This document shows positions 22,118-55,967 of a DNA stretch of 64,000 bases, piece by piece (positions within the stretch are counted from its first letter, which is position 1; every line of letters begins with the position of its first letter). The notes below the pieces were generated by a model, which worked only from the letters and a program-made list of their open reading frames with translations, ran no database searches and was not told the DNA's origin. The DNA is from Barthelona sp. PCE. Lineage: Eukaryota. The DNA lies in NCBI GenBank assembly GCA_040285745.1, contig JAUFOR010000004.1, positions 1,054,001 through 1,118,000 of the forward strand, given 5' to 3'. The position numbers and the translations under genes were made by a program.

Positions 22118-22363
22118 GATAAAATCAACTTCAAAAAAAATAAAATTCGAATGAGATGCAATTCAAAACATAAACCACTCATTATATGGATTTTTTCCAC
22201 TATAGTGAGACCTATATACAACTTTACACCCTAAAAGATTAAGATAAGAACTCATTCAGATGCTTACACTTTTATTTCCTGTACATCAGGCATTTCAAAA
22301 TTTTGGTTAAAATAGCATCATATCGAGCGCAAAATGATATTTTTTTAAAATTTACTGATATAA

Positions 22364-22894
22364 TTACTCCTCAGTAGGGTTCTCGGGCTCCTTTTCTTCA
22401 GTTTCTTCAGTTTCAACGGGATTCTCTTCGGTTTCAACGGGTGGAGCAATGAGCTTCTTGCTTGTCCAACGGTCTTCAAAGGATTCAACTTCCTCTTCAT
22501 TCATATTATCATACTGAATATGAGTTTCAACATTACCATCTTTTTCGGTGGTGGTTGTTGTTTGTTTATGCTCGCCCAGTTGGCGAACAACAACTTCCTT
22601 GCGGAAACCTTGAGAGTTGATGCTTGTCTTGCTATAAAATTTCTTGGTAGGAACAACGGGTTCAGGTTCAGATTCATAGGTTTCTTCAATGAGCTCTTCC
22701 ATGTCTTCCTCTGGCTTACACATGCCGTCACAATGAGTATCTGCAACGAAAGGATGGAAAGTGAGGAATTGTTCAAAGATATTAAGAGGTTCATATGAAC
22801 GACGAACTGGATGAACTGGACGACGACGACGGCGGCGGCGGCGAACAGGCATATAAGCGGGCTCAATGAGGCTAATAAGTGGTGAGTAGAACAT
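22364..22894 (-). CDS. Myeloid leukemia factor (MLF)-like protein, intact copy
   Basis: C-terminal RQLGEHKQTTTTTEKDGNVETHIQYDNMNEEEVESFEDRW resembles the MLF C-terminal motif (G..E....F.NM.E.....F..(E/R)W). N-terminal poly-Arg from a CGC/CGT run. Confidence 0.6.
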   Translation of the reverse strand: MFYSPLISLIEPAYMPVRRRRRRRRPVHPVRRSYEPLNIFEQFLTFHPFVADTHCDGMCKPEEDMEELIEETYESEPEPVVPTKKFYSKTSINSQGFRKEVVVRQLGEHKQTTTTTEKDGNVETHIQYDNMNEEEVESFEDRWTSKKLIAPPVETEENPVETEETEEKEPENPTEE

Positions 22895-23355
22895 TGTTAT
22901 GATTGTTATGAGTTAGGTAAAAAAACAAAATACAAGAATGTAATGGTAATTCAAAATTCAAGACCATTTATGGGCTCTGAATCGACTTTGTAAGCGACTG
23001 TAAAGGGAAAATTTGTTTATATGACCTTTTTGTGAACATAATAAATGGTCCAGCATTTTTAATTAGTTGGGCCCTCTAAGGCTCATGTTCCTTTTCTGCA
23101 AATTCATTGTTGTAAATGGTGATATTACTTCAAATATATGCTTTGTACCGCATGGTTTTGGTGATCAACCAAAAAGAAAGTCATTTTCGGATTCAACCTG
23201 TGTGCTTCCATTACATAATATTTATCTGGTTACACTGTGCATTTTCGCTGCTTGGCTGAGTATTAAGCATGCGAAAACTGCAAATGAAATAAAGTTTCGT
23301 TATCAATTTCCTTACTCAATACACTTTCCCTCTAAAAAGTTTTGTGTGTATCAAA

Positions 23356-23703
23356 ATGGATATAATAATGCTTATCATTTGGTGTTTGGTTGTCTCAGGA
23401 ATTATTTTCTCGATATACCTGGTTGTTATGGATATGCGTCATAAAGACCATTGTCCCAAACTTTTTACATTGCCTGCATGTTACTTTGTTCTGGTATACT
23501 TTATAATGTGCGCCATATCACTTCAGTTTAACGTAAATTATCTTTACAGAATTGGTGCATACTCAGGAGTTATAACTGCAATTTGGTTCAGTGTCAATAA
23601 TATTTTAGGCCGTAAGAAATGCCCTGTCCTCTTCAAAATACCTCTTTGTTACGTTGCTTTCATTGCTTTCGCATCACTCATTATTTTACCTTATTTGAGC
23701 TAA
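23356..23703 (+). CDS. Small 4-TM membrane protein with two CPxLFxxPxCY motifs (DsbB/VKOR-like thiol-redox candidate), copy 1
   Basis: ATG 23356 (MDIIMLIIW). Internal twofold repeat: SGIIFSIY..CPKLFTLPACY and SGVITAIW..CPVLFKIPLCY. Confidence 0.6.
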   Translation: MDIIMLIIWCLVVSGIIFSIYLVVMDMRHKDHCPKLFTLPACYFVLVYFIMCAISLQFNVNYLYRIGAYSGVITAIWFSVNNILGRKKCPVLFKIPLCYVAFIAFASLIILPYLS

Positions 23704-24319
23704 TTTGAAGTAATTGACCATTAATAGTTGGCCCATGTATAGGTTATGGGTCATGGGAATGAGCTAATGTTCATGTAATCGTTTATTGTATATGATTTTG
23801 AAATTGAGTAATTGCAGGTTGTAATAACTTTCTTTTTAACAATAAAATTTGGTTATGTGCCTGCTTTTTCTTGTATTACACTACATTTTCATTCGAAGAA
23901 AGAAAAAGAACGTCATTACTCTTGTAAATAAACTGGATCATAACACATTCACAATCATCCAATCCACATAAAACAGAGCAATAATGCTGAAAGGTTAATA
24001 CAGATGCCTCAAAGAACATATACTTGATATATTTGCGTCTTTAAAAAAAATTATCAACACAAGATACTGATTGATCTACTATGCTTCTTATGCTGAACTT
24101 TTGCTTAATATTATATGCAAAAATTCCGAATAATCCCTCAAATAAGATAAAGTTGTAGAAACAGATAGTCCGGCATCTTCTAAGATATAAGAGCTATATT
24201 CTACGGTAATGCGCATATATTGTGCACATAATGAGCACTTTACATCATAAGAAAAGATCCAAACCTTCTTTCCAACTTGTTCTAATTTTTATCACCTTTT
24301 CAAGCGCATTTTTTGTTAT

Positions 24320-25228
24320 ATGGCGCCAACGTTTAACGTGCAACCGCACAAATTAACATTCAAAGCACATGCAAGCTCTTCCGACGATCCCTATATCGCT
24401 GCCAATTTGGATAGCACAAGCCAGAGCCGCAGAGGGTGGAAGTCTGAGAGGTATGTCACCAAAGGCATGGTCCGCACCCCATTTAAAGGGTAGCGGAACA
24501 ATCCGCATTATTCACCTGTTTTGGTGAAAAATTCATCATTATTAACATTTAGATACGCAAAACATCCCCACACGCTGTACCTGGTCTTCGATGAGCCTGT
24601 TTTTGTAGAAAAATTTGATTTTTTAAGTCACGAGCACGCAATTAGTGCAAAAGTTGATGTCTTTCTCGGTAAACCAAAGCGTAAAAGCATCAGCTACGAG
24701 AATGCGAACTACGACCACCTCGGTTTCTTTACTTTAGCCAGTAATTCTGGCATAGACAGTAATATCAGACCATTAAGAAGTGTAGTTGTTCGTCAAAGTT
24801 TAAGAGTTTTGAAATTAGTATTAAATGAACATCATCATCACACACAGAATATGTTTGACCAGGTGGGCGTGAAGCGCATCGATGTAGAAGGTTGGACAGT
24901 TAAAGAAAAAGTCGAAATGAACAGACTTTTAGAAGCTCCAAAAGAAAATATTAGAAAAGCCTCAGAAGCTAATGAACGTGGTTCCTTAAGGTATGACCAT
25001 GTCACCGCAACACAGATCAAGAACCTCCTTGTCCGCAAGCAACAAGCCGTTGATGATGAGAACTACATGGAGGCAAAACGTTTGAAATTAGAGATCGAAC
25101 GTCTCCATGAGGTTGGAAAACAGATTTCTGTCCTTGAGGAGGAGAAAAAGGCCGCAGTCATGATGGAGGATTATGATAGAGCTCATGATCTGAAGAAGAG
25201 AATTGAGAAGATGAGAAATTTAAGATAA
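24320..25228 (+). CDS. Truncated CEP104 copy (exons 24320-24450 and 24553-25228, 268 aa): N-terminal domain plus UVR-like coiled coil only
   Basis: Same exon 1, intron and exon 2 as the full copy. The frame crosses the duplication junction at 25219/25220 and stops at TAA (..RNLR*). Confidence 0.7.
24451..24552 (+). other. Spliceosomal intron (102 nt) in CEP104 copy 1
   Basis: GTATGT..ATTAACATTTAG. Contains an in-frame TAG. Splicing joins GWKSER|YAKHPH and restores the CEP104 N-terminal GW.S.R...P motif. Confidence 0.9.
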
Positions 25229-25344
25229 GAACTCATTCAGATGCTTACACTTTTATTTCCTGTACATCAGGCATTTCAAAATTTTGGTTAAAATAGCATC
25301 ATATCGAGCGCAAAATGATATTTTTTTAAAATTTACTGATATAA

Positions 25345-25876
25345 TTACTCCTCAGTAGGGTTCTCGGGCTCCTTTTCTTCAGTTTCTTCAGTTTCAACGG
25401 GATTCTCTTCGGTTTCAACGGGTGGAGCAATGAGCTTCTTGCTTGTCCAACGGTCTTCAAAGGATTCAACTTCCTCTTCATTCATATTATCATACTGAAT
25501 ATGAGTTTCAACATTACCATCTTTTTCGGTGGTGGTTGTTGTTTGTTTATGCTCGCCCAGTTGGCGAACAACAACTTCCCTTGCGGAAACCTTGAGAGTT
25601 GATGCTTGTCTTGCTATAAAATTTCTTGGTAGGAACAACGGGTTCAGGTTCAGATTCATAGGTTTCTTCAATGAGCTCTTCCATGTCTTCCTCTGGCTTA
25701 CACATGCCGTCACAATGAGTATCTGCAACGAAAGGATGGAAAGTGAGGAATTGTTCAAAGATATTAAGAGGTTCATATGAACGACGAACTGGATGAACTG
25801 GACGACGACGACGGCGGCGGCGGCGAACAGGCATATAAGCGGGCTCAATGAGGCTAATAAGTGGTGAGTAGAACAT
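25345..25876 (-). pseudogene. MLF-like copy 2, frameshifted (or homopolymer sequencing error)
   Basis: CC in copy 1 is CCC at 25578-25580, which splits the ORF into the 109-aa and 167-aa track entries. Confidence 0.6.
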
Positions 25877-26337
25877 TGTTATGATTGTTATGAGTTAGGT
25901 AAAAAAAACAAAATACAAGAATGTAATGGTAATTCAAAATTCAAGACCATTTATGGGCTCTGAATCGACTTTGTAAGCGACTGTAAAGGGAAAATTTGTT
26001 TATATGACCTTTTTGTGAACATAATAAATGGTCCAGCATTTTTAATTAGTTGGGCCCTCTAAGGCTCATGTTCCTTTTCTGCAAATTCATTGTTGTAAAT
26101 GGTGATATTACTTCAAATATATGCTTTGTACCGCATGGTTTTGGTGATCAACCAAAAAGAAAGTCATTTTCGGATTCAACCTGTGTGCTTCCATTACATA
26201 ATATTTATCTGGTTACACTGTGCATTTTCGCTGCTTGGCTGAGTATTAAGCATGCGAAAACTGCAAATGAAATAAAGTTTCGTTATCAATTTCCTTACTC
26301 AATACACTTTCCCTCTAAAAGTTTTTTGTGTATCAAA

Positions 26338-26685
26338 ATGGATATAATAATGCTTATCATTTGGTGTTTGGTTGTCTCAGGAATTATTTTCTCGATATAC
26401 CTGGTTGTTATGGATATGCGTCATAAAGACCATTGTCCCAAACTTTTTACATTGCCTGCATGTTACTTTGTTCTGGTATACTTTATAATGTGCGCCATAT
26501 CACTTCAGTTTAACGTAAATTATCTTTACAGAATTGGTGCATACTCAGGAGTTATAACTGCAATTTGGTTCAGTGTCAATAATATTTTAGGCCGTAAGAA
26601 ATGCCCTGTCCTCTTCAAAATACCTCTTTGTTACGTTGCTTTCATTGCTTTCGCATCACTCATTATTTTACCTTATTTGAGCTAA
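26338..26685 (+). CDS. Small 4-TM twin-CX8C membrane protein, copy 2
   Basis: Protein identical to 23356-23703 from MDIIM onward. Confidence 0.6.
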   Translation: MDIIMLIIWCLVVSGIIFSIYLVVMDMRHKDHCPKLFTLPACYFVLVYFIMCAISLQFNVNYLYRIGAYSGVITAIWFSVNNILGRKKCPVLFKIPLCYVAFIAFASLIILPYLS

Positions 26686-27301
26686 TTTGAAGTAATTGAC
26701 CATTAATAGTTGGCCCATGTATAGGTTATGGGTCATGGGAATGAGCTAATGTTCATGTAATCGTTTATTGTATATGATTTTGAAATTGAGTAATTGCAGG
26801 TTGTAATAACTTTCTTTTTAACAATAAAATTTGGTTATGTGCCTGCTTTTTCTTGTATTACACTACATTTTCATTCGAAGAAAGAAAAAGAACGTCATTA
26901 CTCTTGTAAATAAACTGGATCATAACACATTCACAATCATCCAATCCACATAAAACAGAGCAATAATGCTGAAAGGTTAATACAGATGCCTCAAAGAACA
27001 TATACTTGATATATTTGCGTCTTTAAAAAAAATTATCAACACAAGATACTGATTGATCTACTATGCTTCTTATGCTGAACTTTTGCTTAATATTATATGC
27101 AAAAATTCCGAATAATCCCTCAAATAAGATAAAGTTGTAGAAACAGATAGTCCGGCATCTTCTAAGATATAAGAGCTATATTCTACGGTAATGCGCATAT
27201 ATTGTGCACATAATGAGCACTTTACATCATAAGAAAAGATCCAAACCTTCTTTCCAACTTGTTCTAATTTTTATCACCTTTTCAAGCGCATTTTTTGTTA
27301 T

Positions 27302-30130
27302 ATGGCGCCAACGTTTAACGTGCAACCGCACAAATTAACATTCAAAGCACATGCAAGCTCTTCCGACGATCCCTATATCGCTGCCAATTTGGATAGCACA
27401 AGCCAGAGCCGCAGAGGGTGGAAGTCTGAGAGGTATGTCACCAAAGGCATGGTCCGCACCCCATTTAAAGGGTAGCGGAACAATCCGCATTATTCACCTG
27501 TTTTGGTGAAAAATTCATCATTATTAACATTTAGATACGCAAAACATCCCCACACGCTGTACCTAGTCTTCGATGAGCCTGTATTTGTAGAAAAATTTGA
27601 TTTCTTAAGCCACGAGCACGCAATTAGTGCAAAAGTTGATGTCTTTCTCGGTAAACCAAAGCGTAAAAGCATCAGCTACGAGAATGCGAACTACGACCAC
27701 CTCGGTTTCTTTACTTTAGCCAGTAATTCTGGCATAGACAGTAATATCAGACCATTAAGAAGTGTAGTTGTTCGTCAAAGTTTAAGAGTTTTGAAATTAG
27801 TATTAAATGAACATCATCATCACACACAGAATATGTTTGACCAGGTGGGCGTGAAGCGCATCGATGTAGAAGGTTGGACAGTTAAAGAAAAAGTCGAAAT
27901 GAACAGACTTTTAGAAGCTCCAAAAGAAAATATTAGAAAAGCCTCAGAAGCTAATGAACGTGGTTCCTTAAGGTATGACCATGTCACCGCAACACAGATC
28001 AAGAACCTCCTTGTCCGCAAGCAACAAGCCGTTGATGATGAGAACTACATGGAGGCAAAACGTTTGAAATTAGAGATCGAACGTCTCCATGAGGTTGGAA
28101 AACAGATTTCTGTCCTTGAGGAGGAGAAAAAGGCCGCAGTCATGATGGAGGATTATGATAGAGCTCATGATCTGAAGAAGAGAATTGAGAGGATGAGAAA
28201 TATGCCTGGTGTTGGTGCACAACGTTCAGAAGCTGAAGAGCTTGCCATGCGTCTCAAGGAAGCTGAGGACGAGCTCCGCAGGAAAGAGAGAGAGCTCATC
28301 GAGAAAGACAAAGAGCTCAAAACCCGTAGAGCCGCTGTTGACGAACGCCCTATTCAACCAGCTCGTGAACGAACACCCTCACCTGCCCCGGAGCCCGTAA
28401 GGTACGCACCAAAGGAGGAGGAGGAAGAGCACGAAGATCCGCTAATCAATCAAGTTCCAGAAGTTAGCAGACCAGTTGGTACTCCAGATAAACAAGCCAT
28501 TCGACCCATGGACCCAAAGAAGTATGAGAAGTACTTTGGTGGCCCCATGGATACACCAGTCTCCAACCCCGATGATCGACCGATTAAACCGAAGGATACA
28601 TCACCCGATAGAGGATTTAAATCTGTCAGTAATTATGATGATTTAGACGCATATCAGGGTCAGTACGAGGTTGAGAAAGTGAACGAGCCCCCTAAATCTA
28701 TTCCAGCAAAGTATTCTGAAATAGCAGGACAAATATCTTCACTCTTTGGAGATCTATTTGCCAGATCTCTTTTTTCAACAAATTTCAAGCACAGAGAAAC
28801 ATGTATTGCAACCTTAAATGAACGTATCCATGATACAATCAATGAGAGTGATAGTGATGTTTGGTTTTCTGTTTTTGAGCATTTGGTCAAGGATAAAAAT
28901 CCAGCTATCATTTCAAAGTTTGGTGATTTAGTTCCTCATCTTTTACATGCTCAAAAGTACTCCCCACCGCTCAAGAAATCTGAGTTGGCCCACCGTATGT
29001 CCAATATTATTGGTGGTGTGCTGAACAGACTCACTGAGACGAACACTCGTGTACGTAATATTATGAATGATTTAGCTGCGCAATTCGCAGATGCTCTTGG
29101 TATTCATTTAATATGGGATTCCTTATTGAAGAAGATTCCTGTTAAAAACACAAAGGCATGGTTGTATCGTTTGCAGCTGCTGCATAAGGTATTAGTCAAA
29201 TCCATCGATTCAATCGATAATAATAAGTGTATGAACCTAATGCAATTTATCAAGGTAGCCTTCGAGTCTTCTAAACATGAGGTCCGTCAGCTCACCATTG
29301 ATATAACATCATTGGTCTATGAACACCACGGACCTGGTAGTGTACGCGCCAGCCTCCCTGCCTTTGATAACATATCCGACCTACCTGCCTTCTACAAGAG
29401 CCTACTTGACCACATCGCACAAGTCAATCAAAAGAATGGCTGGATGATGCTCGGCAGCGATCCTCTTCAAGCATGGGGTGGAAACCAGGGCACAAGTCAG
29501 CATAAATCACCGGGTGCACGTAGGAAACCACAAAGACATGAGGTTGAGGAGTCTATCAATAATATCAAACCAGCATTTGATGAAGATAGTGTAGTAAGAC
29601 ACGATACTATTGAAGATAGTGATTACCATGGTGCAAGAAACGCAACCTCCATCGACATCGACCCAGAAGATGCATTGCAGTACACTGGAAACCTACATGA
29701 TACAGCACGAGAGGGAGCAAATATACCAGCAAATGAATGCTTCTTCTGCGGATTAAAGCACGAGACGCCTGGTCTCGTGGACGTACATTGGTACCAGGAG
29801 TGTCCGTATTTATGTGTATGCCCTCACCCTGACTGCCCTCATCAGGTTCTTCCCATTGATGAATTGAATGATCACCTGTTAATGTCACATCCAGAAGACT
29901 ACGTTGAATGTCCACGTTGTCGTGATGTCGTCGATGCAGCAATCATTGATAAACATCTTGAGTGGGGTGGATGTGGAGACCCTCCCAATGACGATCAGAC
30001 CAGATGTCCACTGTGTCATAAGAATGTTAACCTTGAAGAATGGGGTGATCATGTGGAGGTTATTTGTCCTCGCAATCAATCTCGTCAGAAGAAATTTTCA
30101 AAGAAATTGGAAGAAATGGGGGTTGATTAA
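27302..30130 (+). CDS. CEP104: Centrosomal/ciliary-tip protein CEP104 (exons 27302-27432 and 27535-30130; 908 aa)
   Basis: N-terminal domain (GWKSER..LSHEHAISAKVDVF..LGFFTLASN..NMFDQVG), KQQAVDDENYMEAKRLK / KKAAVMMEDYDRA repeats, TOG-like HEAT region (LFSTNFKHRE), C-terminal zinc-finger array (CFFCG..HWYQECPYL, CPRC, RCPLCH). Confidence 0.92.
27433..27534 (+). other. Spliceosomal intron (102 nt) in full-length CEP104
   Basis: GTATGT..ATTAACATTTAG, identical to 24451-24552. Confidence 0.9.
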
Positions 30131-33087: not shown

Positions 33088-33984
33088 TTAAAGCTTCTTG
33101 CTACGACGCTCGTTAAGAGAAGCAAGCTTCTGACGAATGCGATCCTTACGCTGGCTAAGAGTACGACGCTGGGCCTTAACGTAGGTCTGCTTGTAGTACT
33201 TAGGATCGTGGGTCTTGCTGGACTTCTCCATCTCAGGGGACTCACGGATGTTCTCGTGAACCTTGAGGTAGATATCCTCGAGATCATCGGCGGAGACGTT
33301 CTTACGGATGTAATCACGGAACTGAACAGCGTACTTCTCAGGATCTTCTTTCTCGAGAAGGCGCATGTAGTCAGCGGTCTTACCACCGAGAAGAGCCCAA
33401 CGGAGCTCCTCAGCATCGAACTCATCACCCTTAGAACCGATAAGACGCTTCATGGAGTGAGGGACGTTGAGACCACCATCGACGGCACCCTTCATAGCGG
33501 CGAAAACACGAGCACCAGTAGAAGAACGACGGAGACCGATATCAAGGAGAACCTTGAAGGGACGACGATCGAAGGAATCCTCTGTGACATCGTATTCCTC
33601 ACCGTTGCACTCTTCGAGACCAACGAATTCCTCATCAAGACCGAGCTTCTTCAAGACACGACGGGCAAGGAGGAGACCAACACAGTAAGCGGAGGCGTAG
33701 TTAGTGAGACCGACCTTAAGACCGTATCTCTCGAGCTCGTGACCGTAAGCGGCACAGAAAACCTTATCACCAGCAATGGTGGCGTAGATGATCTGAGCAA
33801 CGATATCACGGTTGGTGAAACGGACAACAAGACGGTACTTAAGGGAAGCGTACTTGTTCTTGGCCTGAGTTACAAGCTTCTTACGGGCTTGGTAATCGGT
33901 CTGACCGGAACGACGACGTCTAGGCTTGACCTGATAACGAGCGTAAGCAGCGCGGGACTTTTCAAATTCTCCAAACTGGACCAT
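33088..33984 (-). CDS. RPL5: 60S ribosomal protein L5 (uL18)
   Basis: RYQVKPRRRRSGQTDYQARKKLVTQAKNKY..YRLVVRFTNRDI; GLTNYASAYCVGLLLARR; GAVDGGLNVPHS. Confidence 0.97.
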   Translation of the reverse strand: MVQFGEFEKSRAAYARYQVKPRRRRSGQTDYQARKKLVTQAKNKYASLKYRLVVRFTNRDIVAQIIYATIAGDKVFCAAYGHELERYGLKVGLTNYASAYCVGLLLARRVLKKLGLDEEFVGLEECNGEEYDVTEDSFDRRPFKVLLDIGLRRSSTGARVFAAMKGAVDGGLNVPHSMKRLIGSKGDEFDAEELRWALLGGKTADYMRLLEKEDPEKYAVQFRDYIRKNVSADDLEDIYLKVHENIRESPEMEKSSKTHDPKYYKQTYVKAQRRTLSQRKDRIRQKLASLNERRSKKL

Positions 33985-38608: not shown

Positions 38609-39002
38609 CTAACGGCGAGCACGAGGGTTGGTACGGACACGACGATCTTCGCGAGAACGGACTCTGACAAGACGGTGGTGACAAGCACAGGAGATGCAGT
38701 AGTGCAACTTGTGATAGGTTCTGGGGATCTTGTAGTTGGTGTAGACGGAAGCGGCTTCGACATCCTTCTTGGAGGAGGCGTCGATCATGTTACGCTGAAC
38801 AGAACGGCGAATGGCTAGGTGTTAGGTTATAAAAAAAATGCTTATGCACAAAACGTTCGAGATATGCTTCTCAACATCGCTCTGTGACATGGGGACACAT
38901 ACACTTATCCTTGGCGACGCAACGACCACAGTTATCGCAGCGAACGATGGGGGTACGACCTCTGTTCTTCTTAGCACGTCCGTTGTTTCTTCTCTTCTGC
39001 AT
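38609..39002 (-). CDS. RPS26: 40S ribosomal protein S26 (eS26); exons 39002-38903 and 38814-38609; 101 aa; absent from the ORF track
   Basis: Spliced translation [101 protein letters not shown]. Confidence 0.97.
38815..38902 (-). other. Spliceosomal intron (88 nt) in RPS26
   Basis: GTATGT..CCTAACACCTAG. Removal restores the conserved KDK.I.R motif in frame. Confidence 0.95.
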
Positions 39003-40061
39003 TATAGATCAAGCAAAGCTGTAAAAAGCTAAAAAAGGGTTCTAAAAGAAGGGAAATAGGTTAATTACCTTAAAGGAAGGTTCTCAACAATGAATGATAT
39101 TATCAACAGTTTATTTGTGTAGGACGCTCGGCAACACTGTGTAAAGTGCGTGTAGCTACATGGTATGTCCATAAATACTTGTAATAAAGACATTTCCAAT
39201 TTTGCTTACGCCTCTGCGTTAAAAACAATAACATGCACCAGTAGTTTGCTTATAACCGTGCCTGCGCTGGTTTAACCTCTATTAATTCTTGAAAAAGCGA
39301 AAAATCATAATTACTGCTTCGTTGTCTTGTATTAGTTGTGTGATCTCGCTGTACTGATCAAAAATCTGCTATCGCACCACGAACCGGTGCTAAATGACCT
39401 CTACTAATTGCTCATAAACAAAGAAATCAATAAAGATGCTCAAATACAATACTCAGCTTCATAAACTTGATTTTACTGGATATTATACCTTAAAAAAAAG
39501 AGTAATATTGAATAAAATGTTCATATACTAATAAAATTTCCTAAACGTATGCAAACCTTCTTCTAAGGTTCAACTACAACCTATTCGTGATTTTCAACGA
39601 TGATCCTGTCATATTGTAAGTAAAACGACAGGACACTTTAAATGGTTAGATATCGAAGAACTTTGGCACACACTCTCACTACCAATAATCACGATCCTAA
39701 TTAGGAAGATACGGCAGTTCAGTTTGATAGAGAATGGTAATAGTGGTCCTGATCAGGAAGATCATGTAATTGATTTAGAATTGAGAATGGAACAGAATGT
39801 ACAAGGTACCATATCCGAACTTAGATCTCTGTAAAAAATCTGTTTACTCTCTCTTACTACCCGTTAACATGGATAAGAATCGGGAAGAAAATCATATAAT
39901 AGGAAGAATTATGATGACGCAAAAGTTGTTGATCCTAATTGGCTGAAAAGGCATGAATTTTTGTTCTAAATCCACATAAGTCCAGCTTTAGTATCGTTCC
40001 TGTACATATTAAATGCATTACATGTGAAAATTCGAGTAAAATGAGGACTAAAAATTTTTTT

Positions 40062-41583
40062 TAGACTTTCAGTATCCGAACTCATTCCAATGTCATCACA
40101 GTTCGAAATTGTGTTCCACACTGGGTGTGGTTCAGACTGAATTTGAAATAAAGCTTAACATGAAGAGAACGTTAAAAATCCAATGTGCAAAGACGTTTAC
40201 ATTCATATTTTTCTGTACATTCTTTGAAAATATAATTACAATGATAAGCAGATGCAGCGAATCAATCAATCTACCACTTGGCGCAATTACTGAAGTGGTA
40301 GAACAGCCACGAGAGCACCAAAATAACTTGTATGTTGAGATTACAACCAAAAATGGAGGGCAGCACCGTGTATCTTGCCGGTATACTGTCTCTGGTGGTA
40401 TTTATGCAACGAATGCAGACTTCAATTCGGAGAAATATTATATTTTCGCCCATCAAGATAGTGTTGATCTCTACAACCACCAAATCAGAGAATCTGGCTT
40501 CAAACTTGGTGAAGGATGCTTGACAAAAGCTCAGGGTCAGATGTGTGGTTTAAACATATTCACAGGGAAAATTTGGATACATCAGCTGGATTTAATGGAA
40601 CAGACAAGGATTATAAGGTCTTTGTGTACTGAAAGAAATCATATAATTAAAAGGAGCTTCCTCCCAGGTGAATATATTAACAGAATTTTGTTGGATAAAT
40701 ATACACAGGGAGTATTACAGCTTTACACACTGATTTTGAACTGGAGATAGGTAATGAATTCAGGAAAATTGGATATTACAAAGGCTTGGTTGCCCATATC
40801 ATTTCCATTCTCTGTTCCAATTTTGATGCATGTTTCTCTGCTTCCTGCGAAAGTCGGGAGAAGGGAGTTGAACATGATCAAACCGTTGAAGAGAGATCAA
40901 ATGGTTCTCCAAGCCAATTTCTTATGAGTTCTGTAGTATCCCCAAGACGAGTAAGACAAACGAGAACAATTGGCGGCACACCAACACGTATTCAAAGGAC
41001 TGAGCAGGATAAGTATGATTTTTCCGATCAGGGTGTACGTGAAAATGATATCCGTCTAGCGCTTGCCTATGGTCACACGAATCCAGCAGTGAAAGGTGTG
41101 GAAAAGATACGGGAATTAGTGCATAAGTACAAAAACACTGTAGCAAGCAATGCTGGTGTTGAGCGTGGGTTTTCCAATTTAAAAAATGCTCATAGTGCAC
41201 AACAAACAAGACTTAAAACGAAATTGCGGTATAGTTGGTACGTGTTCAATAATAGTACTGCAACATCAGCAATTTCCATCAAAGATTTTAGAGCTCTAGG
41301 GTTCAGGAGTGAAGAATAACCAGAAAATGAGTAAGAAGTTCATTGTATTTATTTCGCTTTTACTGTACGTATTTTGGGATATTTGCATAGTACTCTAACC
41401 CTTTTAGGTCTTAAAATAAAAAAGTATTGAACCAAGTTGTCCCATTATTTTTCAAACCTCATTGGATTTTTAACGTTCTCTTCATGTTAAGCTTTATTTC
41501 AAATTCAGTCTGAACCACACCCAGTGTGGAACACAATTTCGAACTGTGATGACATTGGAATGAGTTCGGATACTGAAAGTCTA
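40062..41583 (+). mobile_element. hAT-superfamily DNA transposon, 1522 bp, with perfect 124-bp TIRs and an 8-bp TSD
   Basis: TIRs at 40062-40185 and 41460-41583 are exact reverse complements starting TAGACTTTCAG. ATTTTTTT flanks both sides (40054-40061 and 41584-41591). Internal ORF has the hAT C-terminal motif ASNAGVERGFSNLK. Confidence 0.92.
40241..41319 (+). pseudogene. hAT-like transposase remnant in two frames (apparent frameshift near GGG at 40708-40710)
   Basis: Frame A ends ..PGEYINRILLDKYTQG. Frame B reads GSITALHTDFE..GLVAHIISIL..VASNAGVERGFSNLKNAHSAQQTRL. These resemble the hAT GE.I, VTD, CxxH and S...ER.FS motifs in the expected order. Confidence 0.7.
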
Positions 41584-42466
41584 ATTTTTTTGAATATTCA
41601 ATCATTATCCGTGGTTTTTTATCTCACAATTTACTTGAATTCTACCACAATGAGCTGTTTTTCTCTAATGATTATCCATAAAAAAGAGAAAGAAAAACAT
41701 TCGGCGAGTGTCACGATTTACTTTTTCTTTCCATCTGTATTGATAAGTATTCTACATTTACATTGAATTTGAATATGCTCTTAATGTTTTGAATTTGCCT
41801 AATATTTTTTTTTTCTGCGTATGAACACAATATTACAAATTTAGTAGGATATATCAACTATTATTGTACATTAGTCATTTTGAAAAGCACTTTTTAAGGG
41901 TATATGTGAGCATGGAGCATTTAAAAAAATTTACTTTTCATATTTTAAAAATATTCACCTTTTAGAAGTTTAAATAAAGAGATTCATGATCATTGTTAAA
42001 CGGTACTATATGATTAGTACTAATTACTCTTTTTATAAAACCTGCATATTCTTATTTTTGCTGGCAAAACAGGGTATCATACATGAGTCCTTACACAGCT
42101 ACATATACCCAGATGATGTCCCATCACTCTGCACAGTAACAAGTAGTCATATAAGCAAACATGTGAACATATTGAGAACATGTAAATGTAACTATTTGTT
42201 TCTATTGTAGCTTAGAATCGATTTAAAATGACTTGGAATGTGTGATTAGTTAGTAATAGATGGACTAAAGCCGCTTTATCACTTAAATAACCAAAAAAAT
42301 GTCACAAAGAGCAAAAAATTTGGGTATGTTTCTACAAAGTCATATTTTTATATTTTTTGTCCAATTAGAGCGTCTGTCTCGGCCGTGTCACACACAGAAG
42401 GATGGAAATTCTGAGGGCGATTAGTGGACCCAATGATAGCAACTTCATATTTATAACCCTTATCAC

Positions 42467-45772: not shown

Positions 45773-47982
45773 CTATTCATTCTTCATAATCTTTAATTGT
45801 TCAGCAAACTCCTCACACATCTGCAACGAGTCATCTAAATCATTCTGCAATCGAGTAATTCTCATATCTTTTAATTGAATTGTACGTCGTAGGTCTCGAA
45901 CCTCATTAACATCCATCTTTGAAACGGCACTGGCCTGTTCACGTAGTTTTGCGTTTTCTTCTCTTAAAAGAATCAATTGAGCTTGTACATTACCATCTTC
46001 TGGATGCTTCAGTTCATATTTTAATGCAACAAGTTCATCTTTTAGAGAATTGGCTTCTTGTTCGTAGGAATCCCGCTCCTTTAGCGCAATATCTAGATTA
46101 CTGCGTAAGGAATTCCCTTCCTTTTGTTCTTTGGTCAATTGGGCCCTAAAGTTTCTGGTTTCAGTTTGTGATACTTCTAAAGCTTCTTGAAGCTGTGCCA
46201 ACTTCTCTGTGTTGCTAACCATGGTCTGAAGCTGTTCCTCGACCTCCTTATTACGACGAGAGAACTCTTGACAGTTCACCGTTAATATGTTGTTTCTCCC
46301 TTTCAAATCTGACATTTTTTCTTCAGCACGGGCCTTGAGCTCGTCGTACTTGACCTGGAATGACCTGAAAAGGTCCTTTGCTTGCTCCAAATCTTTCAAA
46401 ACTTTAACGTTCTTTGTTTGCTCACTTTGTAACATCTCCTTTGTTTCATCATATCTCAATCTGATCTTCTTGTACGCGAGTTCGGTATCCTCCAGAAGCT
46501 TTGAACTCTCATCCAGTTTCTGTTCGTATTCCCGCTTCACCTCGTCTCTGATTTTCTTCTTAGTGTTGTGAACCTTTCTGTCATGGCTTGATTCCAACTC
46601 TAGGACAAGACCTTCATACTCCTGCACACCGCGGTGCAACTGTTGGAGAACGTCTTTTTGACGGTGAACTTCTTTCTCTAATTTCTCATTATCTCTGGAT
46701 TTCTCAATGAGCTCCTGTTGCAACGCTTCAACACGTTCGTTCAGCTCAATGATATGCTCGTCGACGCTCTTCTGAGGAATTTCATCCTCGTAAATGGTGG
46801 CTTCTCCAACAGATAATGTGGGGGATCGGCTACCGTCTGACCCATAGGCTACTGCAACGGATAAACCATCAACGTAATCACTTGTTGCTATCGAGCTTGT
46901 GCGATTGATGCTTGTAGCGCTAGCCAATATGTCCGTGGAAGGAGAAAATGAAAGGCGCTTCTCAGTTTTGATTGGTTTCTCGTTTTCAAAACTTTCTACA
47001 CCTTCCAACTCTTCACCAGTTTCGAACGATGTCAGTTTCAGGTGACTTCTCTCATGTGGCGGGGAAAGATCCTCATCAACAGCACCAGGTTGTGCCTCTT
47101 GAAGTTCAATTGGGGGTGTAGCTAATGTTTTTGCCTTTGCAGAAACAGTGTGCGATTTAGAGAGTGAAACTAACGGCGAAATGACTTCTTCCTCAAGTAT
47201 AGAAGTGGTGCGAGGAAGAGGAGTTGATCGTGATGAAGGAGTTTTTAAGTTCAAAATCTCCTTTGTTTTGTTGGGAGTTTGTGTAGGACTTTGGGTAGAA
47301 AGTCGAGATCTAGCTGTTGTTTTGAGAGGTGAACGGCGGTTCTTCTCCTCTTCCTTACGCTTGATGTCATGTAGGAGCTCATTGGCCTCAACTAAGTTGG
47401 GGTTCTGATCTAAGATGATCAAAACTTCGGTTTCGAGCTGAATTATATCAATAGAGTTCAAACAGTTGCGCAAGATCTGTGCCACATCCCCTCTGAGGAT
47501 CTCAGTGGGGGATTGTAGTTGCCTGGCAAGGAAATTGAGCACCTCACTATCAGGCTCACAAACCGCCATCAATTGCTCGAGTGTGGTTCGTGCTGCGGTT
47601 CGCGCATTGGCCGTACCCAGGACCTCGACGATCGCACGAGCATATTCCATTAAATATTCGCTCATATAACCCTTAAGATGATTGCCAAAATTCCCAATTG
47701 CCAACAGTGATGCTTGTAGTAAAGAACTACGCTTGCCCCTCAGTAACCCGCACAGGATGGGCGTTATGTCACCCAGATGGAAGAGCAAATACTTCTGGAG
47801 AGCAGTATGTGAAGCGTAATCGCCAATTTTCCGTAGAGTATCTAGTTTGACCCACCAGTCGACGTCTTCGGCGTCAAGCTTGCGTATGTTGTTGCGGAGC
47901 TCATGCTAAAAATTAGAAAGCAAAAATATTTAAGAAAAATTCATACGGCGCTATCCGATTCAGGATTCATAGGTGAATTCAT
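45773..47982 (-). CDS. TOG/CLASP-N-like HEAT domain plus C-terminal TACC coiled-coil protein (exons 47982-47947 and 47905-45773; 722 aa)
   Basis: After splicing: DVDWWVKLDTLRKI..LRGKRSSLLQAS (TOG-like HEAT). C-terminal TELAYKKIRLRYDETKEM..KYDELKARAEEKM..LQMCEEF resembles the TACC domain. Confidence 0.7.
47906..47946 (-). other. Spliceosomal intron (41 nt)
   Basis: GTATGA..TCTAATTTTTAG. The terminal TAG is an in-frame stop for exon 2, and splicing links it to the ATG at 47982 in phase 0. Confidence 0.85.
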
Positions 47983-48090: not shown

Positions 48091-51000
48091 TTATTCGCTT
48101 TTTGAACTCATCTGTGACATCGAACTCAACCTTCTTTTCCTCTTTTTAAGTTCTAACTTTCTTAATGGATTGAATGTTTCATCTTTTAAGGTTCTTTTAA
48201 TAGGGGCCGGTGAATGAAACATTCCACCCTTCACTTTCTTCCCTAACTTCCGCTCACGCATAAATTGTTTAAAGTATAGACTGTCAGGGTTTGTGAAAAA
48301 ATCAACCATGATACCAACCCCTTCTTTATACTCTTTCAACAGTTGTTTAAGAAAGACAATGCCAGTTGTTTTGTTAAACGCATCCATTTTGTTCTGAATT
48401 CTAGTTTCACGTTCAGCAAGTACTGCAAGAGATTTTCGTTGCTTTTTTTGAATTGTCATACCTTCATCATATGTGTCTCTAGCGATGTCGTAGAGCATGC
48501 GATACCGCTGGATTTCAGCACCAAATGATACCACAGACAGTTTCAAACGTCTATTTTCAATCTCTAACCTCTTCTTCTCAGCCAACTGCTTCTCATAATC
48601 AAGAACTCGTTCATGTAACATCATGATTGTACGCTCAAGCATCATTGTACGTTCATTCATACTTCTTACGTTAAACATATGTGCTGTCATGCGTGTCACC
48701 AGTTCATTTGATAGTAGAACAAAATGATTAAAAGGATGATGTCTTTCATCAGCATGAAGCATCTCAAACGGAAGCATTCCACTGAAATATCTCTCAACAT
48801 CTTCAAATTTCTGTCCAATAATTGGAAAATCAAATTCAGATTGGCCTTCCGAATCAGAAAATTCAAATAATTCAGAACTTACATTCATTAAATCATTAAA
48901 CTCAGTATCAATCATGCGTGCGATATCTGAGGTGTCAAGGGAATCTACATGAGGTATTGGAAAACGTACAATATTAGACCGGCACTCCTGCTCTGATGAA
49001 AGAAAAGCTTCAGGAATAAATTTTTGAAGTGGTGGTCTTAGCGATGGAATTCCACTGATGTTGCTGATCGGAACATGCTCCAGCACACCCATACTTTTAT
49101 GACTAGTGAGACTTTTATGTAGAACAGAGTAAGAAATTGCCAGTGATTCTGATGTAGCATATCCAACACTTTTCTTGTTATCGATTTCTATGAATGCGTT
49201 TGAAATAGCAACGGTGATGACATCTTCTGCTACCTCACGAATGAAATCCATGCTGACTGGTTTAGGCTCATCACACCTGTATATTTGATCAAGAATATGC
49301 TCGACACGACGGTTACCTCTATCTATATTATGTGTAAAGGAGCTCTCGTTGAGGAGCACCTTCCCAATTTTAATGCGGAAATCAGATAGAACACAAACGC
49401 TGGCGTTGAGTAATCGTTGAAATTTTTCGTTCTTTCCAGTCTCTGAACATAACATTGTATGAAGTTTCTGTGCGTCCTCGTTCAATTCTTCCATCTCCAT
49501 ACGGTGCTCATCCTCAATATCTTCAAGTTGTTCACTGAACATACGTCTGTTCTCATCAATGACCGTTTCATAATGGGAAGTCAATTTCTGCATTCTGTCA
49601 TCACCGTTATCCATCAGCAGCTGCTTTTCCTTCTCATAGCTCTCCACCACGGAACGTCGGACCTCCTGTAATGCTTCAGCAGAAGCAGCATCTTTCTCTT
49701 TCATTTCCTGTTTGTACCTTGCCTTCATCTCAGACATCTCAGCTTGCAGAGAACGGATGATCTCGTCCCTTTGGGCCAAGGCCTCATCACTCTGCTGGGT
49801 GATATGCGATATTTGTCCCACAAATCTAGTTTCTGTTTCCTCCATCAGTTTTCTGTTGCTATCCATAATTTCTGTGATCTCTTCCTCGTACTCAGCCTCA
49901 ATTGCTCTTGTTTTAGATTGAAGCTCTTCCTCATGCAAAATTCTTGCCTCTTCGACATTCTTTGACGTTTGTGCAATCAAGTTCTGAAGAGATTCAAGCT
50001 CATTTGTTAACTCTCCCTGACGCTCGTCCATGCCACGCTTCTTTAGTTCATAGTCAGCTTCCATCTCTGCATTTGCTGCAATTAATTGGGCTTGGCGGTC
50101 TTCTAAAGTCTTGATCTCCACTTCATTTTCCAACTTTTCACGTTCAAGCTCGTCAACCTTTGCGTTTTGGGATGCATATTTATCAACCAACCAGTCATTC
50201 TTTCCTTCAATATCAAAAATTCGTTCCATTAGCTCTTCCTCCTTTTGCTTGAACTGTGCCTCAAGCACCTCGTTCTTACCAGTAGACTCCTCTGCAACTG
50301 CCAACTGATGTTCTAACTGTTTTATCCGCTCATTGTTCTGCTCTCTATTAGATAACTCCACAGTTAATCGTGCCAGTTTCTCTGCTGTCTGATCCAATTC
50401 CAGCTGCAGCTTCTGTGCCAGCGCTTTGTAGTCAACAAACACGTTCTTGCGTGCACGTGTCTGAACCTTACATGCTCGCTGGGCGAATAGAAGAGTGGAG
50501 TACGACTCACTACTGTGTTTAAGCAATGGGCTCAGAGTGCAAATCATCACTGTCCTGCTGTTGCCACCGAGGCAGTCTTTCAACAGACGTGTGAGTTTGG
50601 AATCCCGATATGGAACAAACGCATCAGATCGACCCTGAGACAAGATATTGACAACACTACCGAGAACACTCAATGATTGGTTGATGGCAGCAGCCTCCTG
50701 TTTACGGACACCCGACGTCGCACCGCTCACCTTAATGCGTTCCGAACCAGCTAAATCACAGAGCATAAGACGAGAAGAAACTACTCCGCGATTACCAGAG
50801 ACGTAGTTAGGATCATTGAGTTGATCACGATCAACGTGTTCAAACTTATCGATGTTTACGATTAAAACTGCATGTGAACGAGATGATGTAGCATTCAGGT
50901 GAGTGAATGCAGTAACACGGTTTTCATGACCCATAGATATGAGATTAACGACATCATCAACACTATTGACCTCATGTCGAGACAGGCCCGCCACAAAAAT

Positions 51001-51510
51001 ACCATAGTCTGGATCTTCACGGATGACCAATTTTGAATTTTCAGGAACAAATAGATCTTGGAGCATTTCACAATAAATTTGCACATAGCTCACGGTGACA
51101 AGGGTTTTCCTGTCCAGATCCTTTCGTTTTTCCTGGAATATATGTTTCATTGCACGGGGAATGATACCTTCGTGCTTGGTGTGCAGACCCTCATCGTTTA
51201 ACAGTGTATATGTCTTACCAGAGCCTGACTGTCCGTAACAAAGGACACATGCATTGTATCCAGAGAGGGTATAGTCCACTGCTCGTTGCATTCTCTCGAA
51301 AACTTGTTTCTGGTTTGTGCTTTCTTGTAAAATAGAGTCAAAGCTGAACTTTTTCGAGCTCTTGAACCCATATGACCGATTAATGGTTAGTTCTTGGTTG
51401 TCAATGGTTAAAGCCCTATCAACATCGTTATTTTCCAGTTCTTTTGGCAAAACTGGCCGCACACGTATCACAACATCAACGTTATTTTGGACTGATGCCA
51501 GTGAATCCAT
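48091..51510 (-). CDS. Kinesin with N-terminal motor domain and long coiled coil
   Basis: IRVRP, YGQSGSGKTYT, NATSSRSH, DLAGSER, VPYRDSKLTRLLKDCLGGNSRT. Likely start MDSLAS at 51510. Confidence 0.93.
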   Translation of the reverse strand: MDSLASVQNNVDVVIRVRPVLPKELENNDVDRALTIDNQELTINRSYGFKSSKKFSFDSILQESTNQKQVFERMQRAVDYTLSGYNACVLCYGQSGSGKTYTLLNDEGLHTKHEGIIPRAMKHIFQEKRKDLDRKTLVTVSYVQIYCEMLQDLFVPENSKLVIREDPDYGIFVAGLSRHEVNSVDDVVNLISMGHENRVTAFTHLNATSSRSHAVLIVNIDKFEHVDRDQLNDPNYVSGNRGVVSSRLMLCDLAGSERIKVSGATSGVRKQEAAAINQSLSVLGSVVNILSQGRSDAFVPYRDSKLTRLLKDCLGGNSRTVMICTLSPLLKHSSESYSTLLFAQRACKVQTRARKNVFVDYKALAQKLQLELDQTAEKLARLTVELSNREQNNERIKQLEHQLAVAEESTGKNEVLEAQFKQKEEELMERIFDIEGKNDWLVDKYASQNAKVDELEREKLENEVEIKTLEDRQAQLIAANAEMEADYELKKRGMDERQGELTNELESLQNLIAQTSKNVEEARILHEEELQSKTRAIEAEYEEEITEIMDSNRKLMEETETRFVGQISHITQQSDEALAQRDEIIRSLQAEMSEMKARYKQEMKEKDAASAEALQEVRRSVVESYEKEKQLLMDNGDDRMQKLTSHYETVIDENRRMFSEQLEDIEDEHRMEMEELNEDAQKLHTMLCSETGKNEKFQRLLNASVCVLSDFRIKIGKVLLNESSFTHNIDRGNRRVEHILDQIYRCDEPKPVSMDFIREVAEDVITVAISNAFIEIDNKKSVGYATSESLAISYSVLHKSLTSHKSMGVLEHVPISNISGIPSLRPPLQKFIPEAFLSSEQECRSNIVRFPIPHVDSLDTSDIARMIDTEFNDLMNVSSELFEFSDSEGQSEFDFPIIGQKFEDVERYFSGMLPFEMLHADERHHPFNHFVLLSNELVTRMTAHMFNVRSMNERTMMLERTIMMLHERVLDYEKQLAEKKRLEIENRRLKLSVVSFGAEIQRYRMLYDIARDTYDEGMTIQKKQRKSLAVLAERETRIQNKMDAFNKTTGIVFLKQLLKEYKEGVGIMVDFFTNPDSLYFKQFMRERKLGKKVKGGMFHSPAPIKRTLKDETFNPLRKLELKKRKRRLSSMSQMSSKSE

Positions 51511-53689: not shown

Positions 53690-55456
53690 TTAGTTCTCGT
53701 ACATAGACAAGTTAATAAAACTCTCCTTCAGATCCTTACTGAGTTGTTCTAACACTTCCAAACCTGTTTCCATATCATCAGGCATGATCTGCTTTTGACG
53801 TGCAATTCTTTCAAGCAATTCTTCAGTCTCCTCAACGATGATACGCACAGTGACACCATTTGTGACAAGTTTGGTTGCTTCACTTGCCCAGAGTAATAAA
53901 TTCTTGATGATTCCACCTGTTTTCCAGATTGGGGACGAGTAATCAAAAGGTGTGAATCCATTTTGCTGTAAGAAATCTTCCCTGATCATACGTGCAACCT
54001 CTAGGTCAAGTAAATCTGACTGAGGCATGGAATCCTTACCAGCAACCTTAACGACTTCAAGTAAAAGTGCTTCCTTTGCAAGATATTCCTTGACAACATC
54101 AACATGCTCCTCTAGATCCTTAATGTAGTCATATTTAGAATATGACTGCCCCCAACCGATAGCGGGGAAGTGCTTACGTTGGGCAAGAGACTTGTCCAAG
54201 GCCCAGAAAGCTTGGACAATATTCATGGTTGCGACACACACGGGATCACTGAAGTCACCACCTGGTGGAGATACAGCAGCAATAATTGTAACAGAACCTT
54301 CACGTTTTGGTGATCCGATACATTCAACACGACCACCACGCTCATAAAACCCTGAAAGACGAGTGCCCAGGTAAGCAGGGAAGCCACCATCCGCAGGCAT
54401 TTCACCCAGACGACCAGAGATTTCACGGAGTGCTTCAGCCCAACGCGATGATGAATCAACCATGATAGAAACATTGAAGCCAATGTCACGGAAGTATTCA
54501 GAGATAGTAATACCACTGTAGATTGATGCTTCACGGGAAGCAACAGGCATATTAGAAGTATTAGCCATGATTACAGTACGGTCCATGATGGGAATATCTG
54601 AGTTACCGACCTTGAGCTTTGGGAAATCACGGAGCATTTCTGCCACCTCATTACCACGTTCACCAGCCGCTACATACACAATGATATCTGAATTAGAATG
54701 CTTAGCCAAAGAATGCAAGAGCACAGACTTTCCATTACCAAACGCACCAGGGATAGCGCAAGTGGCACCTAACTTCAAAGGGAAGAGCGCATCGAGGACA
54801 CGTTGGCCAGATACAAGTGGTTCTTTTGCAACAAGCTTCTCGATTTTAGGTCTAGCCCTTCTCACAGGCCATTTCTGACACATTGTGTGTTTTGTCTCAA
54901 CGCCGTTGTATTCCGTAACAGCGATCACTTCGTCTATTGTATACTCACCTTCAGGAGCGACGAACTTTAAAACACCACGGTAATCGGGATGCATGGGAAT
55001 ATTGTGTTTGACAATTGGTGTCTCTTGGACCCAACCGAGGTAGTCACCACCAGAAACTACGTCGCCGACCTTATATTCACCAGGGTGAAAGAGCCACAGT
55101 TTATGATGGTCGAGTGGGGGGACATCAATACCATTAGGGATGAACACAGACTTTGCAATGGCCTCAATACGGGTAAGAGGGCGTTGGATACCATCGAAAA
55201 CCGTAGAAACAAGACCAGGACCTAATTCAACTGAAAGAGATTCACCAGTTCTGAAAACAGGATCTCCTACAGAAATACCTGCAGTTTCCTCATAACACTG
55301 AATGGTCGCCTTGTCAGCTGAAAGCTTGATGATCTCACCTACAAGCTTTTCGTGACCACATCGAACAACTTCATGCATAGTACAACCTCTAATACCACCA
55401 GCAATAATGACAGGGCCTGAAATACCCTCAATAACACCGGGTTCGAACTCAACCAT
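53690..55456 (-). CDS. ATP6V1A: V-type H+-ATPase catalytic subunit A (divergent)
   Basis: SGPVI, LVGEII, YEETAG, SVELGPG, IPGAFGNGKS, GERGNE, ANTSNMPVASREASIYSGITISEYFRD, SRWAEALREISGRL, AVSPPGGDFSDPV, FLQQNG. Likely start MVEFEP at 55456. Confidence 0.95.
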   Translation of the reverse strand: MVEFEPGVIEGISGPVIIAGGIRGCTMHEVVRCGHEKLVGEIIKLSADKATIQCYEETAGISVGDPVFRTGESLSVELGPGLVSTVFDGIQRPLTRIEAIAKSVFIPNGIDVPPLDHHKLWLFHPGEYKVGDVVSGGDYLGWVQETPIVKHNIPMHPDYRGVLKFVAPEGEYTIDEVIAVTEYNGVETKHTMCQKWPVRRARPKIEKLVAKEPLVSGQRVLDALFPLKLGATCAIPGAFGNGKSVLLHSLAKHSNSDIIVYVAAGERGNEVAEMLRDFPKLKVGNSDIPIMDRTVIMANTSNMPVASREASIYSGITISEYFRDIGFNVSIMVDSSSRWAEALREISGRLGEMPADGGFPAYLGTRLSGFYERGGRVECIGSPKREGSVTIIAAVSPPGGDFSDPVCVATMNIVQAFWALDKSLAQRKHFPAIGWGQSYSKYDYIKDLEEHVDVVKEYLAKEALLLEVVKVAGKDSMPQSDLLDLEVARMIREDFLQQNGFTPFDYSSPIWKTGGIIKNLLLWASEATKLVTNGVTVRIIVEETEELLERIARQKQIMPDDMETGLEVLEQLSKDLKESFINLSMYEN

Positions 55457-55967
55457 ATTTAGAAAACTTATAGAATGATGAGAAAAACGATAAAACAAGT
55501 GTTTGTTTTTTGGATCCATATCCATGTATATTTCCGAGACCTAAGGGTTAATTAGCGTATTTTGAACCAAAAATTTGTTCTTTTGAAAAAAAAGTATGCT
55601 CTGGTTCAAAAAGCAACTGCACAATCATCTTAATGTGTTTCACAAATATATTTACACTTACTTAACAAATGAATCCATGGAAATTATTATGAATAAAGCA
55701 AAAAATTTTTTATCGAAGATAGACACACCGATCGCCTCAGGGAAAAGTCATGAGGCAATTGTCTAGCATCTAAAACGATGTCTTGGCAAATGAACAAACT
55801 CATAAAAGAGAAATACTCAAATGCAAGAAAACTCCACATTTACTATTGAACTTGAGCAATGAACCACCTGCTCATGATGTCATAAGCACTAAATTGCTGT
55901 TCAAGCTCCAAATACTGAACTATATTCAGACTATAAAAAAAGAATCATACATATCCTTTAAACCCAA

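Follow-up and report, generated by a model that had tools for sequence, protein, structure and literature searches.

An 88-nt RPS26 intron with a predicted spacing hairpin in the free-living metamonad Barthelona sp. PCE: a possible counterpart to the stem-shortened introns of diplomonads and Trichomonas

In Giardia lamblia, the trans-spliced and long cis introns (Rpl7a) are said, following Roy et al. in 2012, to have 5' and 3' portions that pair with each other and bring the splice signals together, and this pairing was reportedly proposed as the step allowing the intron to split. As described by Hudson et al. (2019; PMC6679479), long cis and trans introns of Giardia fold to a donor-acceptor distance of 35-45 nt, which is the length of the short introns. 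In Spironucleus vortens, the short introns cluster at 40-42 nt and the longer ones carry stem-loops, the Rpl30 intron of S. salmonicida folds to 41 nt compared with 43 nt for the short introns, and the introns of Trichomonas vaginalis fold to 25-44 nt (PMC6679479). In the same article, long internal pairing is proposed as a step enabling fragmentation into trans-spliced halves (PMC6679479). The initial annotation of the DNA considered here had given stem-shortened cis introns and base-paired trans-spliced introns as already described in diplomonads and parabasalids (Giardia, Trichomonas), as this article bears out, and the present analysis compares with these systems an intron from a lineage branching outside the Fornicata.

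Barthelonids and skoliomonads together form the 'BaSk' clade, sister to Fornicata, and Barthelona sp. PCE, with 10.2 Mb in 8 contigs, 40.3% GC and 5064 proteins, has the smallest genome reported for any free-living eukaryote (PMC11316075). Regarding barthelonid introns, no description was found in the papers searched, of which those naming both Barthelona and introns touch on introns no more than incidentally; in the accessible text of the genome paper the word 'intron' occurs once, in the methods (PMC11316075), and supplementary files may hold intron statistics. The window, i.e. the whole stretch of DNA analysed here, covers 64 kb of this genome. Among its genes, V-ATPase A (53693-55525, minus strand) and uL18 (33091-33984, minus strand) were compared with 5.8 billion clustered proteins and show no relative above 55-58% identity; as both proteins are normally highly conserved, such low values indicate an isolated and fast-evolving lineage. 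For V-ATPase A, uL18 and the PDB ribosome chains, matches of 50-58% are found across eukaryotes, without special affinity to Giardia. Some diplomonads use a non-standard code in which TAA and TAG are read as Gln; this code was rejected for the window since the standard code gives long ORFs filling it. One ORF on the plus strand (76-11484) encodes 3802 aa without any Pfam family, and its 3' third (8-12 kb) has a GC content of 51-58% compared with about 40% elsewhere in the window, whose GC profile agrees with the value given for the genome.

The RPS26 gene is encoded on the minus strand by two exons. Exon 1 (38903-39002, with the ATG at 39002-39000) comprises 33 codons plus one base and matches positions 3-34 of the Pfam family Ribosomal_S26e (E 9.7e-11), and exon 2 (38609-38814, with the stop codon TAG at 38611-38609) matches positions 36-99 of the same profile (E 3.4e-23). 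They are separated by an 88-nt GT-AG intron in phase 1 (38815-38902, minus strand), reading GTATGT...CCTAACACCTAG, whose last nucleotides form a fused branch-point/3' splice-site motif, CTAACACCTAG (38815-38825, minus strand), with the presumed branch A located 7 nt before the 3' G. Excision of the intron brings together the S26e profile positions 34 and 36, and the split codon supplies position 35 (Pfam). Because the protein is conserved across both exons, the intron and its boundaries are as good as proven and this homology marks it as a true spliceosomal intron, combining GTATGT at the 5' splice site with a branch-point motif fused to the 3' splice site. A perfect inverted repeat with 125-bp arms (40061-40185 and 41460-41584) is found roughly 1 kb upstream of RPS26. 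The arms are 1274 nt apart, and the arrangement resembles that of an element flanked by terminal inverted repeats; neither of the ORFs between them (196 aa and 131 aa) has a Pfam match.

Within the RPS26 intron, RNAfold predicts a 47-nt hairpin on the minus strand (38844-38890, i.e. intron positions 13-59), in which AUG.CACAGAGCG and CGUUUUGUG-CAU form the outer pairing, two of its pairs being G-U, and UUGAGA and UCUCGA form the inner one. The initial annotation had proposed an 88-nt RPS26 intron with a 47-nt hairpin at these positions, with outer arms relying on G-U pairs and an inner TTGAGA/TCTCGA pairing; RNAfold returns the same pairs, and the S26e match supports the intron itself. It had also counted 12 + 29 = 41 unpaired nt outside the hairpin, a figure that stands when the splice motifs are held single-stranded but not in the unconstrained minimum free energy (MFE) structure, where an extra outer helix of 4 bp joins positions 5-8 to 62-65 and covers part of the 5' splice site. 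With this outer helix present, fewer than 41 nt are left unpaired, so the exact value of 41 depends on leaving it aside.

As to stability, the whole intron folded without constraint has an MFE of -19.5 kcal/mol (z -2.26), and 3 of 200 dinucleotide shuffles do as well. When the first 7 and last 12 nt are kept single-stranded, as if bound by snRNPs, and only the interior is shuffled, the hairpin is the sole helix, at -18.4 kcal/mol (z -4.0), and none of 500 shuffled interiors is as stable. Taken in isolation, the hairpin folds at -17.6 kcal/mol (z -3.5; 1/200 shuffles as good) and its antisense at -8.2 kcal/mol (z -0.7; 42/200). The helix contains three G-U pairs and, given these pairs and the weak antisense fold, this is a structure of the transcribed RNA strand, not a DNA palindrome; the asymmetry between sense and antisense suggests that selection acts at the RNA level, on the strand that is transcribed. 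Compared with genomic background, 8.1% of 509 GC-matched 88-mers fold as stably as the whole intron and, irrespective of GC, 17% of 1280 sampled windows do so. The RPS26 fold is thus above shuffle expectation, yet not extreme against the genomic background.

Similarity searches around the hairpin were negative within their respective scopes. No second copy of the hairpin sequence is found in the window when up to 3 mismatches are allowed; Rfam gives no match at the gathering score over the whole window and none at E up to 1 over 38700-39050, and a tRNA scan found none. An exact 37-nt intron pattern has 0 matches in the genome contigs and 0 in metagenome contigs, and the search with RPS26 exon 2 gave 595 pattern matches in the metagenome contigs, 0 of which was confirmed by tblastn.

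The window was scanned for introns by pairing each 3' motif, YTAAYNNNYAG, with any 5' splice site located 30-250 nt before it. The scan gives 6 motif pairs compared with 2.55 ± 1.63 expected, and the 3' motif alone is not enriched (16 sites vs 16.6 ± 4.7 expected). In all three introns with coding support, the presumed branch A precedes the 3' G by 7 nt, as it also does in a 121-nt candidate, and the 5' splice site is GTATGT in RPS26 and in a CEP104-like gene, and GTATGA in a TOG-like gene. One 38-nt candidate (14771-14808) was rejected as an intron, as it lies within a continuous DEAD-box helicase ORF and its excision would shift the frame.

The shortest of the three is the 41-nt intron of a gene for a TOG-like and coiled-coil protein (47906-47946, minus strand; GTATGA...TCTAATTTTTAG). 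The initial annotation had called it unstructured, and its fold agrees with this, with an MFE of -0.8 (z 0.40) attained by 117 of 200 shuffles. Its first exon (47947-47982, minus strand), identified by a frame-consistency scan, consists of 12 codons with an in-frame ATG, and in this gene 80 open codons precede the first ATG, reaching back exactly to the 3' splice site. The N-terminal 300 aa of the protein resemble TOG domains (score 0.90), a resemblance to be taken as a lead only. Several genes related to centrioles, cilia or microtubules are found within 30 kb in this part of the window, namely CEP44 (21227-22117, minus strand), CEP104 (27302-30127, plus strand), the TOG-like gene with its TACC-like coiled coil (45776-47982, minus strand) and a kinesin gene (48094-51510, minus strand).

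The second long intron, of 102 nt, is structured and interrupts the CEP104-like gene (27433-27534, plus strand; GTATGT...TTAACATTTAG), whose product matches the Pfam families CEP104_N, TOG and ZnF. The database protein P0241 (908 aa, PCE1_002114) spans exactly this junction (...GWKSE-R-YAKHP...); the Barthelona gene models were trained on RNA-seq (PMC11316075) and the database model of CEP104 uses the 102-nt intron. An identical copy of the intron is present at 24451-24552 (plus strand), in the upstream unit of a tandem duplication and, the two copies being identical, they give no covariation signal. Under the constrained fold, z is -3.5, and 1/500 and 0/500 shuffles are as stable for the two copies. 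Both long introns with coding support therefore fold better than dinucleotide-shuffled controls (RPS26 z -4.0 with 0/500; CEP104 z -3.5 with at most 1/500), as the initial annotation had expected of long introns. Against genomic background, 2.3% of 576 GC-matched windows are as stable as the CEP104 intron. The tandem duplication itself is head-to-tail and about 2.98 kb long (22239-25219 and 25220-28201), with 6 mismatches and 3 one-base indels over 2980 aligned bases, 4 of the 6 mismatches falling in exon 2 (24583-24628). It contains the 5' part of the CEP104-like gene with the 102-nt intron and a minus-strand ORF, the upstream CEP104 copy being truncated, and could be either a recent event or a long-read assembly artefact.

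A third long intron is a candidate only. It is 121 nt long (55541-55661, minus strand; GTAAGT...TTAACCCTTAG) and ends 15 nt before the start codon of V-ATPase A; its TAG provides an in-frame stop just before the V-ATPase A ORF. Since it is frame-incompatible with the upstream ATG, it would be a 5'UTR intron, if real. It contains a perfect 10-bp stem, and its overall stability is not significant (z -1.2, with 12% of 500 shuffles as good). For the same gene, an alternative 5' site, GTGTGT, giving an intron of 188 nt, was rejected: it is frame-compatible but without homology support.

Regarding the spacing of the splice signals, the initial annotation had proposed a near-fixed distance, based on the unpaired length of the folded RPS26 intron being exactly that of the 41-nt intron, and had allowed that this match could be partly due to chance. 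The number of unpaired nt after folding is 41 for RPS26, 31 for CEP104, 38 for the 121-nt candidate and 41 for the short intron; in shuffled interiors, 32-35 ± 8-9 nt are left unpaired and 26-34% of the shuffles land in the range 36-46. Because so many shuffles fall in this range, the unpaired count has little power and the exact 41 is partly luck, in keeping with that caution. The spacing was also expressed as the structural branch-point distance of Rogic et al. (2008), for which each base pair counts as a single step and the shortest route between the 5' end and the branch A is taken; here, its mean was calculated across Boltzmann-sampled structures in which the splice motifs stay unpaired. 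The ensemble-mean distance from 5' splice site to branch point is 34.0 nt for the 88-nt RPS26 intron (80 nt in linear sequence), 33.2 nt for the 102-nt CEP104 intron (linear 94 nt), 34.0 nt for the 121-nt candidate (linear 113 nt) and 31.1 nt for the short 41-nt intron (linear 33 nt).

For shuffled sequences these distances are 26-29 ± 5, and 81-95% of the shuffles are shorter than the real long introns. With 400 shuffles each, 14.2% (RPS26), 14.5% (CEP104) and 21.0% (candidate) fall within 31-35 nt, and the joint chance of the clustering is 0.02 when only the two supported introns are taken and 0.004 when the candidate is added, the range of 31-35 nt having been chosen post hoc, after the short intron was known. 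As the long real introns are at the long end of the shuffle distances, the pattern would fit a lower as well as an upper bound on the spacing. The clustering also depends on how the fold is constrained: the path distance in the MFE structure of CEP104 is 27, not 33; when the motif constraint is removed, the distances drop to 20.0 (RPS26), 26.2 (CEP104) and 16.2 (candidate) and the clustering is lost; and under weaker constraints the candidate gives 25-26. In favour of the near-fixed spacing is the agreement of the path distances at 33-34 under the motif constraint, and against it are the unpaired count, 31 for CEP104, and the loss of the clustering when the constraint is removed. On a sample of two coding-supported long introns and one unverified candidate in a 64-kb window, the ruler would be a plausible and moderately supported reading for Barthelona, restating a model already published, now for a newly sampled sister lineage.

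How the hairpin is to be explained can be considered in this light. On balance, though with guarded confidence, it probably acts as a zipper-type stem on the pre-mRNA, which would bring the splice signals to short-intron distance. As predicted, the stem would start 12 nt from the 5' end and end 21 nt before the branch A, and the folded RPS26 intron would then present the same distance from 5' splice site to branch point as the unstructured 41-nt intron. Such a mechanism has been put forward before to explain long introns in Giardia, Spironucleus and Trichomonas, and would have its analogue in the zipper stems of yeast; it implies that the hairpin would form in vivo and that splicing would depend on it. 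The main competing account, to which we give an appreciable but clearly minor share of belief, is that the intron interior is unconstrained and happens to form a hairpin of about -18 kcal/mol that plays no part in splicing, the 41-nt match being a coincidence among three introns. It draws on the 8.1% of 509 GC-matched genomic 88-mers that are as stable, on the 26% of shuffles that leave 36-46 nt unpaired, on the value of 31 that the CEP104 intron gives by the same unpaired count, on the outer helix of the unconstrained MFE structure, which spoils the count of 41, and on the presence of just two or three long introns to compare. Chance alone fits less well with the constrained RPS26 energy, reached by 0 of 500 shuffled interiors, with the strong strand asymmetry brought about by the G-U pairs, with the structured state of the second long intron, CEP104, with the joint probability of 0.02-0.004 for the clustered structural distances, and with the repeated report of the same pattern in sister lineages.

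Two further accounts concern what else the hairpin may be. A gene-specific regulatory element, bound by RPS26 or another factor to control its own splicing, or else a stable small intron RNA, is improbable in our estimate: comparable stems occur in the unrelated CEP104 intron, the geometry is that needed by a spacing stem, no Rfam family is matched even at E up to 1, and 47 nt is too short for a snoRNA. Yet the host is a ribosomal protein gene and several yeast ribosomal protein genes autoregulate, the hairpin is specific to the sense strand, autoregulatory pre-mRNA structures are cited for yeast, and stable intron RNAs are raised as a possibility in a re-analysis of Giardia (PMC10711314). Still more improbable is an origin from a palindromic DNA element, MITE- or introner-like, whose insertion would have lengthened an ancestral intron of about 41 nt and left the hairpin as its relic. 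Removing the 47 nt does leave exactly a minimal-length intron, and the perfect 125-bp inverted-repeat element 1 kb away indicates that such elements exist in the genome; the hairpin sequence is nevertheless single in the window at up to 3 mismatches and, in contrast to a recent DNA palindrome, it needs three G-U pairs and its opposite strand folds poorly. Moreover, a later role as spacing stem would be compatible with such an origin.

Beyond the zipper-type stem in RPS26, a wider proposition can be formulated, namely that the reduced spliceosome of Barthelona, and perhaps of the ancestor of BaSk and Fornicata, accepts only a spacing of about 33 nt, bounded below and above, that longer introns would all need a stem, that the ruler would be an ancestral metamonad trait and that the genome may hide split, trans-spliced genes. 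We regard it as tentative and, taken as a whole, rather doubtful. Regarding signs of trans-splicing, 5 of the 16 sites of the 3' motif abut the start of a long open frame, the duplicate copy being counted, and for each of these 5 a 5' splice site is present in cis; the remaining sites are inside read-through ORFs or in closed frames. No orphan 3' half-intron before a long ORF is found among the 16 motif sites, 64 kb being far too small to judge. If the few introns of Barthelona obey the metamonad spacing rule, then this rule and the fused motif would not be by-products of parasitism. If true, the spacing rule would be either old in metamonads or recurrent as introns and spliceosomal parts are lost, and Barthelona would offer a free-living reference for reduced spliceosomes relying on intron structure and for the route from cis to trans-spliced introns.

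Compared with the zipper stems of yeast, which shorten the branch-point distance and have been tested by mutation and DMS probing (RPS17B; PMC2536676, PMC12350175), the RPS26 stem is a predicted fold. Like them, it belongs to a ribosomal protein gene, a class of genes in which zipper stems are common (PMC2536676, PMC12350175), and it agrees with the position rules established in yeast, with 12 nt before the stem, 21 nt to the branch A and 18 nt to CTAAC. Its linker of about 33-34 nt, however, lies outside the geometric definition of yeast zippers, for which 42-85 nt is given (PMC2536676, PMC12350175). Besides, the introns of yeast far exceed those of Barthelona in length and keep the branch point apart from the 3' splice site.

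The likeness to the systems of Hudson et al. (2019) is closer. As there, introns occur towards the 5' ends of genes, some of which encode ribosomal proteins, and, much as introns of about 40-43 nt are found in those species beside longer, stem-shortened ones (PMC6679479), the 41-nt intron of Barthelona is found beside longer introns with predicted stems. The 3' motif of Barthelona combines the spacing of Giardia, with the A at -7, and a TAG end as in S. vortens (PMC6679479); in Giardia, with the published motifs [G|C]TATGT and CT[A|G]ACACACAG (PMC10711314), the branch point is as far from the 3' splice site as in the Barthelona introns. With at most 18 bp, the short Barthelona hairpins resemble the stems of Spironucleus, judged by Hudson et al. 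to be too short for keeping two separate halves together (PMC6679479); unlike in Giardia lamblia, no split gene is seen in the Barthelona window. Here, the introns are identified from genomic sequence. Since Hudson et al. (2019) state the same spacing model with nearly the same numbers, the mechanism is not new. What sets this locus apart is its lineage, Barthelona belonging to the BaSk clade, sister to all Fornicata, and its host gene, RPS26, the name 'Rps26' having 0 occurrences in the text of PMC6679479: both lineage and host gene are new for an intron of this kind.
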